64,000 nt of DNA from a virus (Duplodnaviria; Caudoviricetes), in IMG/VR virus record IMGVR_UViG_3300033074_001459, positions 207 through 64,206 of that record. One strand, written 5' to 3'. Below are positions 632-34,403 of the stretch, one piece after another; positions within the stretch are counted from its first letter, which is position 1; each line of letters begins with the position of its first letter. Position numbers and translations under genes: made by a program. A model generated the notes under the pieces. That model was not told the origin of the DNA and made no database searches. It saw only the letters and a list, made by a program, of their open reading frames with translations.

Positions 632-3076
632 ATGCCTCAGACTCAAGGACCCGTAGTAATACAAAATCCCCGGCAGCAGAACTACTTTGGTGCCGCACTG
701 GGCCAGGGTCTGGGGCAGGCTGCCGGTGCAGTCCTCTCAGGGGTGGCCGGAGCTGCCGGTAAATTCCTGGGGAACCTCATTCACGAGGATCCCCAGGAGG
801 CTCTAATTAAGGCCAACACTGATGTAACCCGGTCGGCTAACCTGCAGAACGCCCTGGCCGCTTACCAGAACTGGTTGGCGGCTGGTGGCGAGGACCGGGT
901 AAACAGCCCAGAGAGCCGTTCTCAGTTTGCGCGGTCCTATCACCTGGATGATGAAGAGGCTGCTGCGTTTGAATCGTTGGCTGCAAGCACCGATACCAAG
1001 TCGGGAATCCTGCAAAAGGCTAACTCGAATGCCGCCACTTCCTCTGAGTTGTCTGACTACGAGCAGAAGCAGGAGGGGCTAGCACCATTTACAATCGGCG
1101 GTGGACTGTCTGCTTCGGTTCCTCCGCCTGAGATGACTGCTCAGGGAGGTACTTCCGCCCAAAATGGTAAGGCAAGCACAGGGGTAGCACCTGCTGCCGC
1201 TGCTTCCCTCGTGCAGCCCACGGTACCTACTGCCTCCAATACTTCCCCTGAGAAACTGGCGGAGATTCAAGCCAAAGCTGAGAGCCCTTTGACCCCTCCT
1301 GCTCCTTCGGCTCAGGCTGAGGCTCAGCAGAAGGAGTTGGCGGCTGGTACTACGGTAGCCCCGGCTAAGGAGCTTCCCCCTATCGCGCGTAAAGCAGACG
1401 CTCTCGTGGAGCCTCCGGCCCCCAAGCCTGCGCCTATCTCCCCGCAGGAGGCACAGAAGCGCAGGGCTTTGGCTAATCTGGCATTCACCCGGCTTCAGGG
1501 TACTATGGCCCAGTTGGGGCAAATTCGACTGGCCCACGAGAAGGGTACCGTTGACCCCAAAATGACCAACGCCGCTGTGGCTATGACTCAGGCTATGGAG
1601 TCTGACATCAACTCGATGGTGGAGCAGGGTTTGGCCCTTCAGGGGTTACCCCCTAATCGGGATGTCAACTTCGCGAAAGCCTCGTATCAGCTCGCTGCGT
1701 ACAAAGCATCTCACGACCCAGTTATGATGGAGCGCCTGAAGGCGGCGGGGTGGGATACCGACCAGATTATGAGCGAAGGCCAAAAGTGGGTAGACACTGC
1801 TTCCAAGATGAGTCCAGCCGCTTTGACTATGATTACGCCAATGGCCGACCTGTTCAAGTTTGAGCCCGGTAACCAGAGCACCATTAACGCATCTATCGCC
1901 AAGAACCACCTGGAGTTCAACAAGCAGGTGCACGCCGACGAGGTAAAACAGGCGAACGAGATGATGCAGCTACGGCGCAACGAGGACGCCCGTCAGGATA
2001 AGATACTAGCCACCAAGCTGGGACTCGATATGGAAAACGTCCGAGGGCTTCGGTTGTCCAATGACCTGAAGGAGCAATTGATGGGGCCTATGGCCGAGGA
2101 GGGACGCCTCAAGGTATCGCAGCTCCGCCAGCAAATTCAGCAACAGGCTAAGGAGTTCGGAGTTACTCTAGAGGGGAAAGAGCTGAACAATCTGGCTTCG
2201 TACGCGGTGCTGGTGGACCACGACTACGACGTATTTCTGAAGATGCAATCCCGCCAGGATACGGCAGACGCAGCAGCCGAAGCGAAGGCTTACGACCGTA
2301 TTACCAAAATCGAAAAAATCCGCGCCGACTACATCAACCAGACTAAGAAGGGCAACTTAGGGGCTTTGATTGATTCGGTCTCCAAGATTTCCCCAGCCGA
2401 GGTTGAGCGGAGAGCTAAGAAAAACCCGACCGCTTTTCAGGAGGCGCTGTCCCTGGTGGCTGAAGGTACTCCCACAGAAGCTGACAAGGTGCAAGCAGCC
2501 ATTGCAGTGGAGAGCCACGAATACGCCGAGTATCTGAGGCAACTCCACGATTACGACAAGGCCATCGAGAAGCAGAACGCGCTTATCACTCGGATTGTGG
2601 CCAAGCAAGACAAAGGCGTGGCAGCAGCCTTCACAGAGTGGCAGAAGGCGATTCGTGACCCTGCTAACGCTGGGCAGGTTGCTGCGCAAAAACGCAACCT
2701 GGATTTCCAGTTGCAATCTTATGCCCAGGGAGTGTACGACAAGCAGCGCACCCGGATTATCGACGCCGTGAAGGGTATGGATACCATCACCGCTAAGCAG
2801 GCTCTGCTGAACAGCCCTGACAAGCTGGATGTGATTCTCGGTAACTTTGCGGTTACGGACGGCAAAGTGAAAGTCACTTCAGGGGGCTTAAGCGACGAGG
2901 AGAAGGCTGCGCTATTCATTATGGCGAGGACGCCGGGTGGTGTTATGTCCCCAGACCAGTTCTCCAAGATGCAGCTAGGACCCCAGACCTTGGGACAAAG
3001 GTTTGGCAAAAATACACAAGAGGCATATAATGCCTATAGGAAATTCCAACAGGTGGTAGGCGCGAATGCAACTTGA
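632..3076 (+). CDS. Putative internal virion (DNA ejection) protein, 814 aa
   Basis: AAGGAG RBS; N-terminal GxxLGQGLGQ glycine-rich segment followed by long helical Ala/Gln/Lys-rich region; sits just before the giant SLT-bearing protein as in podoviruses. Confidence 0.6.
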   Translation: MPQTQGPVVIQNPRQQNYFGAALGQGLGQAAGAVLSGVAGAAGKFLGNLIHEDPQEALIKANTDVTRSANLQNALAAYQNWLAAGGEDRVNSPESRSQFARSYHLDDEEAAAFESLAASTDTKSGILQKANSNAATSSELSDYEQKQEGLAPFTIGGGLSASVPPPEMTAQGGTSAQNGKASTGVAPAAAASLVQPTVPTASNTSPEKLAEIQAKAESPLTPPAPSAQAEAQQKELAAGTTVAPAKELPPIARKADALVEPPAPKPAPISPQEAQKRRALANLAFTRLQGTMAQLGQIRLAHEKGTVDPKMTNAAVAMTQAMESDINSMVEQGLALQGLPPNRDVNFAKASYQLAAYKASHDPVMMERLKAAGWDTDQIMSEGQKWVDTASKMSPAALTMITPMADLFKFEPGNQSTINASIAKNHLEFNKQVHADEVKQANEMMQLRRNEDARQDKILATKLGLDMENVRGLRLSNDLKEQLMGPMAEEGRLKVSQLRQQIQQQAKEFGVTLEGKELNNLASYAVLVDHDYDVFLKMQSRQDTADAAAEAKAYDRITKIEKIRADYINQTKKGNLGALIDSVSKISPAEVERRAKKNPTAFQEALSLVAEGTPTEADKVQAAIAVESHEYAEYLRQLHDYDKAIEKQNALITRIVAKQDKGVAAAFTEWQKAIRDPANAGQVAAQKRNLDFQLQSYAQGVYDKQRTRIIDAVKGMDTITAKQALLNSPDKLDVILGNFAVTDGKVKVTSGGLSDEEKAALFIMARTPGGVMSPDQFSKMQLGPQTLGQRFGKNTQEAYNAYRKFQQVVGANAT

Positions 3077-6000
3077 CCCCCAGGCCGCAGAACTATTGAT
3101 GATGCCTGAGAAGAAGGAGGAGCCCCCCGCTCCTCCTTCCTCTATGCCAGTTCAGGAGGACGCGGTGCCTGATGACGCTGCCGCCTTGCTGGATGTTCCA
3201 GCTCAGCCTGTTCCCTCGAACAACAAAGGTACCGTGGTTATGGACGAATGGACCAAGGCCACGGTGGCTGACTTGCTCAAACCCAAGCAAGAGCAGGTGG
3301 CCAAGTACCCCCAGGCTACGCCATACGACGTAGCGAGAGTTGCCACCGAGTCCGGCATAGGGCTACCCAACGAGCCCGGTCCCCGGGAGCAGCCCACCCT
3401 GCTGCCAGGACGAAAAGACCAGGTTAGCTACGTGCGTCAGTCTGTGTACGGCGGTGCTGACGTGGCCGGGCTGAAGGATGCGCCTTTAGGCGGAGCCTAC
3501 CTCCTACGAAAGTACGCCAACGAGAACGGTCTGGAAGTACTATTCACCAGCGGCGCTCGCCAGAATGGTGGTGACAGCTACCACGATTTCGCCGAGGCTG
3601 TAGACGTGCGTATTATGAAGCGCGGAAAGTCTGGGCAGCTTTACGCTATGAGCCCAGAGGAGGAAGTGCAGTGGGGGGTCAAGCTGGGCAAGAAGGCCGG
3701 ATGGGCTTCGATGCTCAACGAGATTGGTTTTGACCCCGGTGGGCACAAGACCGGCGACCACTTGCACTTCGCCTGGGGCGTGGAGCGCAACCTGAAAGGC
3801 GACCCTAGTCACCACCTTCTGAATGAGCGATACCCGGAAGATGCCAACTATCTGAAGATGAACCCCAGCGCCAAGCTGGCCCCGGCTGGTGACAAGAACC
3901 GCAGCCGTATACCGGCTATGGCCGAAGTCATCGCTAAGGCCGAGGGGCTCGACCCGGACATCTTCGTCAGAATGGTGCAAGCAGAGTCTAACTTCGACCC
4001 GGCAGCAGTCTCCTCAGTGGGGGCTACCGGTCTGGTTCAGATGATGCCAGACACGGTCAAGGAAGTAGCCGCTCAGCTAGGGGTATCCCCCGAGGAGTAT
4101 TACGCTAGCCCCCACATGCAGCTCAAGTTCGGGGCTCAGTATCTCAAGACCCAGCTCAAAGCCAACGGCGGAAACTACGCCAGGGCGCTGGCTGCCTATA
4201 ACGCAGGTCCCGGTGCTCTGGACGAGTTCAAGAAGGGCAAAGAGATTTACGCCGAGACTCGGAACTACGTCAAGAATATCCTTGGCGATGTTCCTGATTC
4301 GGGGATAGCCAGCGAGCAGGATGCGATTGCAGCCATTGTGAATGGTACCGGCCGCACCCTGGACCCGGACCACGAGAAGAAAGCCGTCCAGCACCTGAGC
4401 AACGGAGTCAAATCAGAGTCCGAGGGGTTCCTCTCTCGACTCTGGGAGTACGGAGAGAATGCGCTCAGTAAGATTCCGGGTATGCAAGGGGCCGCCCTTG
4501 CTTCAGAAGCATCTCGTAAGGGCTCTTTGGAAGCAGTCATCGAAGACCCATCGTCCAGATATCGCAAGCAGATAGCCGATGTATCGGATTTTGCCGGTCT
4601 GGGAATGGGGCTTGACCATTTCCTTCCCTGGTTCCAAGAGAAGCTAGAAACCCGAGAGTCTCAAAAGGCCGAGGTGGCTGACCACAATCTGTTCGACCAG
4701 GTATTCGGAGAGAACGGAGCCGTCCAGCGCAACATCCCGTCCTTGATTGGGATGTACGTAGGTGGCGGAGTAATACACAAAGCCCTCAAAGGGCTGCCTA
4801 TATTCTCGGCTGCAGGCAAGGGCACGGCAAGCGCACTGGATACCCTGGCCTCCAAGTCTGCCAACCCTATGATTACCAACCTGCGTGCTATGACCGCAGG
4901 AGGGGCTGGTAGTCAGACGGCTAAGTTCACAGCCGATTTGCTGGAAAGCTCTGCAGTAGGGGCTACAATGATGGGAGTCAGCGGAGCTGTAGACTGGCTC
5001 ACCACCGAAGGGAATGACCCCATCTCAGACCCTGCGGGTTTGGCCAAGGCAGTGGTGGCCCATAGCGCCATAGGCGGAGGGTTGGGCATATTCTTGGGCA
5101 CGTCCTTGCCTATGTTGGGGGCTACCCTTCTCAACACCGCCGGTAATCTGGCTGGTAAGTCGCCTATGGCCAACAACCTGATAGGGGCTATAAGCGAATT
5201 CTACCAAGGTGCTAGCACAATGCAGCGGGCGTCTATGCGTACCATTGCAGGGGCCGGACTGGGCGGAGCCCTTGGAGCCGCTTCTGATATGCTGGGAATA
5301 ACGTCCACCGTATTTGGAGAGGACTCAGGCAACTTGGGTCTTACGGCAGGTACAGGAATAGGCGGAGCTGCTGGGCTCGGCGTTGTCCCAGTCTTGTCCA
5401 AGGTTATGAATTGGAGCGGCCTGTCCAAAAAGCTGGCCGATTCTCCTATGGGCAAAGCTGCCGCAGAGTACGCCGGTAAGGTTGTAGACAATCTGAACAC
5501 GGCGCAACTCCGGGCTATGACCAAAGACATTCTGGATTCGACTGACCAGGCTATGGACCTGAGTTACCGTGACCGTACGTTCCGTATGGCCAACGGCGCA
5601 GACCTGATGCTGACCAAGTCCTTGGAGTCTCTCAAGGGCAACATCACGGAATCGGCCAAGAAAGCTACCATAGCTCTGTCCGAGAAGCAGAAGCTGGATA
5701 CCGAATTCCAGACTATGGTGCAGCAGATGGAGGCCGGTGAGAAGTCTATGCCCCAGGCTGTAGACTTCCTGAACTCCAAGCAGCAGTTGGAAGCGGAGTT
5801 CGCCGAACTACAGAAGCAGGGTGCGCAACTGGCTGAACAGGTGAAGAAGGGGCAAGCACCCGGTGCGGCTCCTATCCCCGGCCTGTCTCCAGAAACCCAG
5901 CAAAGCCTGGGAGGTGCGGCTACGCAGGCGCAGCAGATGTCCGCAGCCCAGGTCAGTGGCACGTTGATTCAGGCCAAAATCGCCGAGGTTCAGAATCGTA

Positions 6001-32988: not shown

Positions 32989-33214
32989 TCTCGTTCTCCG
33001 ATTCACGTAATACTCTGCACAGTCCGTTCATTCGTTTGTCCAAGGCATCTACGTTTTGCGCCACTGGGGCAAGGCAAGCGGACAACGCCCTGAGCATAGG
33101 GGTGTCTGGAAGTTCTTGGATTTGGTGGTCAATGTTGCGCAAGCACTGCTTCAGTTGCGCTATCAGGTGCCGTAGGTTCCCCTCTACTTCGTCGGCCAGC
33201 GGATTGATGTTCAT
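32975..33214 (-). CDS. Hypothetical coiled-coil protein
   Basis: AAAGGG RBS immediately after the ncRNA cassette. Confidence 0.55.
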   Translation of the reverse strand: MNINPLADEVEGNLRHLIAQLKQCLRNIDHQIQELPDTPMLRALSACLAPVAQNVDALDKRMNGLCRVLRESENENESA

Positions 33215-33234
33215 ATACGATACACCCTTTTCAA

Positions 33235-33258
33235 AAGTGCCGGTCTTTCCCGGCTGTC
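33235..33258 (-). repeat. 24-bp direct repeat copy 2 (GACAGCCGGGAAAGACCGGCACTT), hairpin
   Basis: Identical to 33440-33463; stem GCCGG/CCGGC with loop GAAAGA. Confidence 0.95.
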
Positions 33259-33262
33259 TGCT

Positions 33263-33352
33263 TGGTGGGACCCTCTCGATTTGAACGAGATCCAGAAGTG
33301 CTGTCCCGAGCCCGTAACTGCCCAGGTCCCTCTGGTTTTTCCTCTAGGTCCC
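33263..33352 (-). ncRNA. tRNA-like RNA B (90 nt, encoded CCA, no D-stem)
   Basis: Acceptor GGGACCT/GGGTCCC-A-CCA; T-arm TCTCG-TTCAAAT-CGAGA; long central arm CCAGAGG/CTTCTGG plus CCTGGGC/GCTCGGG. Confidence 0.8.
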
Positions 33353-33355
33353 GTA

Positions 33356-33435
33356 TGGTGGAGCTTGGCGGGATTCGAACCCGCATTGTGTCCGCCGGTT
33401 TGTCTTCCGTAACCTTCAGAGCCGGCCCAAGCCCC
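33356..33435 (-). ncRNA. tRNA-like RNA A (80 nt, encoded CCA, G3.U70, no D-arm)
   Basis: 8-bp acceptor GGGGCTTG/CAAGCTCC-A-CCA; T-arm GCGGG-TTCGAAT-CCCGC; central helix GCCGG/CCGGC. Confidence 0.8.
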
Positions 33436-33439
33436 GTGT

Positions 33440-33463
33440 AAGTGCCGGTCTTTCCCGGCTGTC
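33440..33463 (-). repeat. 24-bp direct repeat copy 1 (GACAGCCGGGAAAGACCGGCACTT), hairpin
   Basis: Identical to 33235-33258. Confidence 0.95.
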
Positions 33464-33698
33464 AGATACACGTTGGCCTGTTTAGCTGAGCGTCGTTTAC
33501 AGGCTCCAGGGCTATGCTCTCCGGGGGACAAGCCCGGCATACTCAGCAGACCCTACTGCCCGGGTATATCAGCCGAGCAATCGTTTGCGCAGGGACAGTC
33601 TCCACCGCTTGAAGTTGATGAACCCGATTTCAGCACCGGCGGCAGCCAGCCACTGAAACCGGAGCCACCACTCCAGTTCCTCCAGGTATTCAGCCGAA

Positions 33699-34403
33699 TT
33701 AGGGCTGAAAGAATTTGGCGGTCACCTTGGTCCCTGCGTCAATCTTGTAGAGTTCGCAGAACCGAGTGACAGATTCGTCAGACAGCCCTACGCTCTGAAG
33801 CCAGGCAACGAACTTAGGTCCGTCTACCGAGTTAGCCAGACCTCGGCACTTGGTAAGGATCAGCTTGACCCGGTTCACGTCGTGCCCGATGTAACCGGCG
33901 ACAGCTTCAGGGTTGTGGATGTCGATCTCCACTTCCTCTTGCTGTGCTTGCACCTCTACGGTTTCCAGGTTCTTGATGGAGTCGAGAATCTCATCCATCC
34001 TTACCTGAAGGTACTCGAAGATGCTGCGGACAGTCTCCTGGAGGCTATCAATGCGATTCGATAAGCTGTTGTGATTATCGGACAAATGCTCGACAAGACT
34101 GTCGATTCGTGCAGATACTCCTGCCATATCCCCCTGGCCGAAAGTCGGGCCCTGCACTTCGTCGGTAGACGGGTCATCCAGTCCTCCTAATCCGTCGATG
34201 TCATCCAGACCACCGAGGCCCATATCCTCAGCAGCGGGCTTAGTCTCCTTCTTGTCTTTCTTGCCCTTCTTGCTGGTGCCGTTGCTGGCTTCGTTGAGAT
34301 ACTGGTCCAGTTCATTCAGGGCTGCAGGGTCGAGGTTACCCGCCCCCTCCAGGGTGTCCATTGCGTTACCGGCGGGTTTCTGAGTCTTAGGCGCTCGTGG
34401 CAT
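33699..34403 (-). CDS. Hypothetical acidic protein, 234 aa, ending CCC TAA
   Basis: GAAAGGA RBS before ATG 34403; DDIDGLGGLDD low-complexity segment plus coiled coil. Confidence 0.65.
   Translation of the reverse strand: MPRAPKTQKPAGNAMDTLEGAGNLDPAALNELDQYLNEASNGTSKKGKKDKKETKPAAEDMGLGGLDDIDGLGGLDDPSTDEVQGPTFGQGDMAGVSARIDSLVEHLSDNHNSLSNRIDSLQETVRSIFEYLQVRMDEILDSIKNLETVEVQAQQEEVEIDIHNPEAVAGYIGHDVNRVKLILTKCRGLANSVDGPKFVAWLQSVGLSDESVTRFCELYKIDAGTKVTAKFFQP

Follow-up and report, generated by a model that had tools for sequence, protein, structure and literature searches.

The RNA locus and its surroundings

The window analyzed in this study, by which we mean the whole 64,000-nt stretch of DNA, is drawn from the complete 64.2-kb IMG/VR record of an uncultured sludge phage. 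This phage is a distant relative of cultured phages, since its DNA polymerase is no more than 24% identical to that of any of them. The locus of interest lies on the minus strand, where a gene for a 245-aa protein is followed by the first copy of a hairpin of 24 nt (33440..33463, GACAGCCGGGAAAGACCGGCACTT), which ends 4 nt before the 5' end of an 80-nt RNA that we call RNA A (33356..33435). RNA B, a 90-nt, CCA-ended, tRNA-shaped RNA recognized by its sequence, its fold and a descriptor scan (33263..33352), lies 3 nt downstream of RNA A. The second copy of the hairpin, an exact direct repeat of the first (33235..33258), starts 4 nt after the CCA of RNA B (5 nt when counted from the 22-nt motif) and lies ~20 nt before the ATG of a 79-aa ORF. 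A 109-aa ORF (33211-33540, minus strand) spans both hairpins, RNA A and RNA B. It could be assigned to no family, nor did any other ORF overlapping RNA B have a family match, and it is probably a false gene call.

The earlier note on this DNA had quoted a sequence and segmentation for RNA B that agreed exactly with the minus strand at 33263-33352, and the structure drawn there was returned by RNAfold as both the MFE and the centroid structure (-37.1 kcal/mol, 42% of the ensemble). The energy of this fold corresponded to a z of -2.7, with 4 of 200 shuffles folding as well, and the plus strand at the same position showed no folding (z = +0.36). The 5' strand of the acceptor, GGGACCU (33346..33352), pairs with 33267-33273 in the fold and the sequence, with G3-C70 and U7.G66 among its pairs; the 3' strand, GGGUCCC, is followed directly by a discriminator A and a genomically encoded CCA (33263..33273). 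Where a D arm would be expected there is a 10-nt linker that holds a GG (AGAGGAAAAA, 33336..33345). It was unpaired in the MFE and centroid structures alike, as is consistent with the stemless D replacement that had been proposed for this tRNA-shaped RNA gene. The long two-tier central arm described by the earlier note was also present in the fold (33292..33335), and consists of 7 bp (CCAGAGG/CUUCUGG), a 2x6 internal loop, a further 7 bp (CCUGGGC/GCUCGGG) and an 8-nt loop (AGUUACGG). A single base, A33291, joins this arm to the T arm, which has a 5-bp stem (UCUCG/CGAGA) and the 7-nt loop UUCAAAU (33274..33290; seen in the sequence, the fold and the descriptor scan).

All 26 of the predicted pairs in RNA B are standard, with G.U the sole type of wobble, the T loop matches the consensus, and the acceptor and T arm form a stack of 12 bp. 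We searched the 64-kb window on both strands (128 kb in total) with a strict tRNA-end descriptor that required 7 of 7 acceptor pairs, 5 of 5 T stem pairs, a TTCRANN loop and N-CCA directly 3' of the acceptor. RNA B was the sole match, and none of 200 dinucleotide shuffles produced one. The tRNA-end signature of RNA B is far beyond chance.

RNA B is built like the tRNA-like domain of tmRNA

Standard annotation tools did not recognize RNA B. ARAGORN found no tRNA or tmRNA gene in the 64-kb window, in which no Rfam family reached its gathering score. When a 107-nt region was searched at E <= 10, RNA B gave chance-level Rfam matches alone, none of them to tRNA or tmRNA. The tRNA model (RF00005) did not match at E <= 10 or at E <= 1, the tmRNA model (RF00023) did not match at E <= 10 in the 107-nt search, and there was no match to YrlA (RF02553). 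The mascRNA model (RF01684) scored 13.4 bits against a cut-off of 42.5 bits, with an E of 1.9, which is chance level. A tmRNA_permuted match across the junction of RNA A and RNA B was likewise at chance level (16 bits, E 1.2), and we rejected the idea that RNA B is half of a permuted tmRNA.

Comparison of RNA B with the features of tRNAs gave a divided picture. It has the 7-bp acceptor, the discriminator base, the 3' CCA and a 5-bp/7-nt T arm of the UUCRANN type; it has neither a D arm with a stem, nor a 5-bp anticodon arm with a 7-nt loop, nor a variable region of at least 4 nt, and is recognized by neither the gene finder nor the covariance model. That there is no tRNA call from ARAGORN or Rfam, no 7-nt anticodon loop and 1 nt between the arm and the T stem bears out the suggestion that RNA B very probably does not decode. 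The same spacing led us to a different view of the central arm, which had been termed anticodon-like. This is because an arm that leaves 1 nt before the T stem occupies the position of tmRNA helix 2, or of a class II variable arm, and not that of an anticodon arm, and its layout is that of the mini-tmRNA of mycobacteriophage DS6A (discussed below).

RNA B shares with tmRNA an unpaired D-loop analogue containing GG and a helix-2-like stem situated 1-3 nt from the T arm, and in the Rfam tmRNA consensus, too, a 5' stretch similar in length to the RNA B linker is unpaired and contains GG. The acceptor has G3-C70, from which the earlier note had concluded that its identity differs from that of RNA A. 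It is without the alanine mark, which RNA A carries as G3.U70. RNA B is, then, built like the tRNA-like domain of a tmRNA, yet is not a tmRNA: we do not file it as one because both the G3.U70 pair and a covariance-model match are missing.

A tag-less tmRNA look-alike next to RNA B

RNA A resembles the tRNA-like domain of tmRNA, with G3.U70 and without a tag region. It aligned end to end with the Rfam tmRNA model (26 bits, E 4e-8), the 326-nt middle of the model being replaced by 30 nt, and has an 8-bp acceptor and an encoded CCA. The Rfam tRNA model scored it at 19.9 bits, under the cut-off, and RNA A was the sole site in the window that this model touched. RNA A probably belongs to the tag-less mini-tmRNAs of phages.

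The two RNAs have some short sequences in common. GUUACGG occurs in the apical loops of both RNA A (33407-33413) and RNA B, GGACA is found 3' of the apical stem-loop in each, and in a global alignment RNA A fits best to the inner 68 nt of RNA B. Homology of the two interiors was rejected, as 17% of shuffles scored as well. GTTACGG was present at 10 copies in the window against 5.5 expected, a weak signal, and we discarded the idea that UACG is overrepresented in other tRNA-like RNAs led by the hairpin (8 observed versus 7.1 expected). No B-like partner was found beside the mini-tmRNAs of other phages at the seven examples that we examined.

The hairpin at the cassette borders

The hairpin is not peculiar to this phage. 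Its 20-nt core, within the 23-24 nt of (T)GACAGCCGGGAAAGACCGGCAC, was exact in more than 120 unrelated IMG/VR contigs among the matches listed, in which it was usually preceded by TGA or TGG. It is also present in the Stenotrophomonas phage Pokken, ahead of a tRNA cluster. The hairpin sites are intergenic and often lie 2-6 nt upstream of a tRNA or an odd tRNA-like RNA; others immediately precede the start of a gene. At ~22 of the 121 distinct hairpin sites listed, a tRNA-shaped RNA was located within 0-13 nt downstream. Seven of these ~22 were canonical by ARAGORN, including the tRNA-Arg(UCU) of L131, a relative of the window phage. RNA A starts 6 nt after the 20-nt core, inside the 2-6 nt range of the tRNAs, and so fits the arrangement of a tRNA-shaped RNA 2-6 nt behind CAGCCGGGAAAGACCGGCAC; RNA B instead follows RNA A by 3 nt. 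One RNA of this type elsewhere, at L019 4465-4525, is a 61-nt CCA-ended tRNA-like RNA that lies 5 nt behind the hairpin and has an acceptor, a D arm and a T arm without an anticodon arm.

The hairpin had no Rfam match, and a literature search on its sequence returned no paper containing it. Two other interpretations were set aside. The sequence contains a TGACA resembling a -35 element, but as a sigma-70 promoter it would be without a conserved -10 and its start would fall inside the tRNAs. Nor is the hairpin a general motif of the window phage, as there are two copies in the whole window.

Presence, absence and replacement of the cassette

Close relatives of the window phage were located through the flanking proteins (92-97% identity). 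Alignment with relatives that have no cassette defined a 205-bp insertion/deletion unit on the minus strand (33259..33463) comprising one copy of the hairpin, RNA A and RNA B, with borders that are ambiguous within the 24-nt repeat. Its length is not a multiple of 3. In three relatives from three different samples (L134, L138 and L140), which have identical or near-identical flanks, the slot contained a single hairpin and nothing else; in L134 and L140 the flanks around the hairpin were identical. RNA A, RNA B and one hairpin copy thus form a 205-bp accessory unit that is present in some phages and absent from others. As close relatives have either no cassette or another RNA at this site, the cassette is a self-contained accessory module, and its absence from near-identical phages indicates that it is dispensable. 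Both the absence of the unit from close relatives and its bounding by a widespread hairpin had been missed by the earlier note. In the cassette-less relatives, the frame opened by the start codon of the 109-aa ORF continues across the hairpin and into the 79-aa gene, and its product was called as a 117-aa protein (P0013).

Other phages carry different material in the same slot. In L133, and in run X3, a different RNA of ~235 nt lies right upstream of a single hairpin. The L133 cassette (4925-5147, a 94% relative) is a non-coding stretch of ~200-235 nt directly upstream of the hairpin, and the 5' two-thirds of this type of cassette, including CAGTGAAGA.CTGGCAGCCGAGGGGCG.TCGCCTCGGCAT, is kept in L135 (~1410-1600, a 55% relative). 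No Rfam family matched this cassette, which is a candidate for a structured RNA. Contigs of related phages from public runs diverged from the window exactly at 33258 and 33464. In addition, a 367-nt contig of a variant phage, from a metatranscriptome library, covered the upstream region and the hairpin and then continued as T + GGGACCTAGAGGA..., without RNA A. In that phage the first 13 nt of RNA B stand on a different body, 3 nt behind the hairpin, and 27 nt of this B-like RNA were covered. At least three different cassettes therefore have their junctions at the edges of the hairpin. Two samples, both from one study, were the only ones in which an identical A-B cassette was found.

More distant relatives place real tRNAs at this site. 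Six relatives identified by their DNA polymerases (40-61% identity) were compared, and the 245-aa gene upstream of the cassette has a homologue in one of them, L124 (35% identity). The slot of L124 holds tRNA-Arg(UCU) and tRNA-Ile(UAU), and those of L125, L130 and L131 hold tRNA-Arg(UCU), all with an encoded CCA; the relatives with canonical tRNAs in the slot have DNA polymerase identities of 50-61%. In L131 the tRNA-Arg(UCU) is 2 nt behind the same hairpin. The cassette site is a tRNA slot in related phages, and the window phage itself has no canonical tRNA by ARAGORN.

Searches for homologues and evidence from RNA libraries

With a covariance model of RNA B (R1), we searched 1.25 Mb of loci that are related or bear the hairpin; no homologue emerged, and the only match, at L019, was weak and non-homologous. 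Pattern scans for RNA B in IMG/VR, JGI metagenomes and GTDB genomes gave no match, and no host tRNA from which the 3' half of RNA B might have been copied was present in the GTDB species-representative bacterial genomes. When the A-B region was compared with 50,697 phage records by blastn, the hairpin alone was matched, in phage Pokken, and blastn-short against 120 hairpin loci also returned the hairpin alone. A related-locus search with the DNA polymerase of the window gave no match. RNA B thus appears to be a singleton, having no full homologue in the collections searched, and, because no homologue was found, its fold is without covariation support. What speaks for RNA B is its intrinsic signature, together with its context and the 13 nt that recur in the variant phage.

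Two metatranscriptome libraries, both from a single sludge study, yielded contigs over 33476-33779 of the window, with carry-over of DNA being possible. This interval contains the 3' end of the 245-aa gene and a 235-nt untranslated stretch before the hairpin, the fold of which was no better than chance (z -1.3). The contigs from the RNA libraries leave RNA B itself uncovered, as they end at the hairpin, or 27 nt into the variant, and may have originated from DNA.

Proposed role of RNA B

We consider it somewhat more probable than the contrary that RNA B is a genuine, processed, non-decoding RNA. Our preferred reading, to which we give about an even chance, is that it is an accessory non-decoding mimic of tRNA that is processed by host tRNA enzymes and acts in trans. 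RNA B keeps the parts that are read by host end-processing and acceptor-binding factors, namely the 12-bp stack, the consensus T loop, A73 and the CCA. In the folding model, one long helix that ends 1 nt before the T stem takes the place of the D stem, the anticodon arm and the variable loop, and the GG-containing linker could dock on the T loop. As no sigma-70-like promoter or terminator framing the cassette was found, the cassette would be transcribed together with the leftward replication-gene operon. A cut by RNase P at G33352 would then leave RNA A with a 3-nt trailer for trimming to its CCA, and the 3' side of RNA B would be trimmed to its own encoded CCA. The resulting stable RNA B would read no codons and may act in trans, as a mimic or decoy, on one of the host factors to which the acceptor ends of tRNA or tmRNA bind. 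Candidates include SmpB, EF-Tu, a synthetase or a defence toxin that targets tRNA ends, and our confidence in any particular target is low. Neither SmpB nor a CCA-adding enzyme is encoded by the window phage itself, and presence or absence of the cassette is not accompanied by gain or loss of a partner protein. That near-identical phages are without the cassette makes a pure housekeeping role in processing less likely than an accessory, host-directed role.

RNA B might instead be a functionless by-product, either a decaying copy of a tRNA or mini-tmRNA or a chimera produced by recombination at the hairpin and the GGGACCT repeat, which would be short-lived in one phage genotype. Its singleton status, with an identical copy in two samples of a single study, and its absence from the closest relatives are in keeping with such an origin, as are the best alignment of RNA A to its inner 68 nt and the presence of its first 13 nt on a different body in the variant phage, which suggests a mosaic. 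Against such an origin stand the 26 of 26 standard pairs, the consensus T loop and the encoded CCA; chance did not produce the tRNA-end signature in any of the 200 shuffles, and the similarity between the interiors of RNA A and RNA B is not significant. Overall, we regard a by-product as unlikely.

It has also been established, through mascRNA-type elements, that tRNA-like structures can serve as punctuation in a longer transcript. RNA B could be a cis-acting cut mark of this kind: RNase P and 3' trimming at RNA A and RNA B would end the upstream message and give the replication-gene message a hairpin-capped 5' end, and the excised RNA would be without function. The cassette has no promoter or terminator of its own and is flanked by an upstream gene and the replication operon, and in many phages the hairpin stands at the starts of genes as well as of tRNAs, all of which would suit a cut mark. 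Against this, near-identical phages manage with the hairpin alone. Furthermore, one tRNA-like element would suffice, yet there are two elaborate ones, and RNase P has no need of the 14-bp arm or of the loop motif common to RNA A and RNA B. We therefore consider a cut mark to be rather unlikely.

Returning to the trans-acting mimic, a more detailed form of it can be imagined in which RNA A and RNA B together are a mobile two-RNA counter-measure. RNA A would be a mini-tmRNA that accepts alanine and RNA B a non-alanine sponge for SmpB or for a toxin acting on acceptor ends, both RNAs would interact with one and the same host enzyme through their GUUACGG (UACG) loops, and the cassette would move by recombination at the 23-nt hairpin, which would double as a processing joint. 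This combined scheme is speculative and, taken as a whole, distinctly unlikely.

The earlier note had also pointed to a second GGGACCT at 33324-33330 that permits an alternative fold of 68 nt. The repeat does exist and is able to form pairs with the 3' strand of the acceptor; the fold itself is weak (-23.7 kcal/mol, z = -0.9, with an MFE that is not tRNA-like) and the repeat is not significant. Shuffles of RNA B had a repeated 7-mer in 17% of cases and a 5-mer present three times in 11%, and we therefore rejected the GGGACCT repeat and the triple GGGAC as a signal. If the 68-nt form starting at 33330 were the functional molecule, it would be an anticodon-armless RNA with a D-arm-like hairpin of 4 bp, colinear with RNA A, with the first 22 nt of RNA B serving as a leader or a switch. 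The pairing of the inner heptamer with the 3' acceptor strand is perfect, RNA A aligns there with GGG.C.UGGGC, GUUACGG and GGACA in the same order, and tRNA-like RNAs without an anticodon arm are present behind the hairpin at other loci, such as L019. We nevertheless think it very unlikely, as the 90-nt fold is better by 13 kcal/mol and sequesters the inner heptamer, and the B-like RNA of the variant phage begins with the outer 13 nt.

Finally, we consider it extremely improbable that RNA B is a D-armless decoding tRNA in which a lengthened anticodon arm would read a codon for Val or Arg by way of the UAC or ACG in its UUACG-containing loop. It is this UAC within the 8-nt loop alone that points to ValRS, which the earlier note had named first among the synthetases. 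D-armless tRNAs exist in mitochondria, relatives hold real tRNAs in the same slot, and in one relative a tRNA whose anticodon arm is 26 nt long is still called by ARAGORN. In RNA B, however, the arm comprises 14 bp and an internal loop where 5 bp are standard, its loop is of 8 nt, the variable region is missing, with a single nucleotide preceding the T stem, and no ARAGORN or Rfam tRNA match was obtained at any threshold tried.

Comparison with known tRNA and tmRNA mimics

To our knowledge, many tRNA-look-alike RNAs of phages cannot decode, and few of them, e.g., the DS6A mini-tmRNA, have been studied. The DS6A mini-tmRNA (JN698994 28478-28560) scored 43 bits against the Rfam tmRNA model. In its fold, a 7-bp acceptor is followed by an unpaired GG linker and a central helix in tiers, which 2 nt separate from the T arm. 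RNA B is similar in being encoded by a phage, in its size (~80-90 nt for the two RNAs) and in having a 7-bp acceptor, a GG linker replacing the D arm, one tiered and loop-capped helix, 1-2 nt leading to a consensus T arm, and A73, with no tag frame. It differs in having G3-C70 for G3.U70, and hence no AlaRS determinant, in encoding its CCA, and in bearing no sequence signature of tmRNA (no match at E <= 10, versus 43 bits for the DS6A RNA and 26 bits for RNA A). A passage in PMC11915505 (citing Mao et al. 2009) reports that the tag-less DS6A mini-tmRNA inhibited the host tmRNA when expressed in E. coli.

With canonical tRNAs (RF00005), RNA B has in common the acceptor stem, the UUCAAAU T arm, the discriminator A, the encoded CCA and its position in a tRNA slot, whereas it is without the D stem, the 5-bp/7-nt anticodon arm and the variable loop and is undetected by ARAGORN and the Rfam tRNA model. 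It also resembles the hairpin-led tRNA-shaped RNAs of other phages, which combine an acceptor and a T arm, and often a CCA, with an aberrant middle in a hairpin-bounded intergenic slot. None of these is a homologue of RNA B by sequence or covariance model, and in the window RNA B follows RNA A and not the hairpin. The mascRNA and menRNA elements are likewise tRNA-like, non-decoding RNAs and are cut out by tRNA-processing enzymes, although the Rfam mascRNA score sets RNA B apart from them. Small stable RNAs that are tRNA-like, non-decoding and excised by tRNA-processing enzymes are found in the tRNA cluster of phage T4 as well. RNA B belongs with the known phage mimics of tRNA and tmRNA, as an unusual orphan.

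The most useful new facts are the natural alleles with and without the RNAs and the hairpin-bounded structure of the cassette. At one hairpin-marked site, near-identical phages offer a comparison between no cassette, a two-RNA cassette and a different RNA, and the locus is thereby a workable system for the role of such a mimic, be it interference with ribosome rescue, a decoy against defence or a processing mark. It also bears on the widespread hairpin as a joint for the exchange of RNA modules, and on whether the layout of the tmRNA domain can function without an alanine identity.

Unusual tRNA-like sequences at other loci

During this work we noted several unusual tRNA-like sequences in other phages. 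In L130 (a 50% relative), ~500 nt of non-coding DNA with no Rfam match (2580-3060) precede the tRNA-Arg(UCU). This stretch ends in a tRNA-like piece with an acceptor of GGGGCCU.../...AGGUUCC-A (G3.U70) and the T arm GGGGUUCGAGUCCC, without CCA. L135 encodes a CCA-ended tRNA (3118-3200) with normal D and T arms and an anticodon arm of 26 nt, which scored 47.9 bits against the Rfam tRNA model with an 18-nt insert and was called tRNA-Pro(agg) by ARAGORN, with the call at position 37. It is a further case of a tRNA with a lengthened arm in the lineage of the window phage. In L153 (minus strand), a second tmRNA-like T arm with a AGCTCCACC end was observed ~190 nt downstream of an 80-nt mini-tmRNA (3054-3137), and may represent an att-type duplication or a second small RNA.
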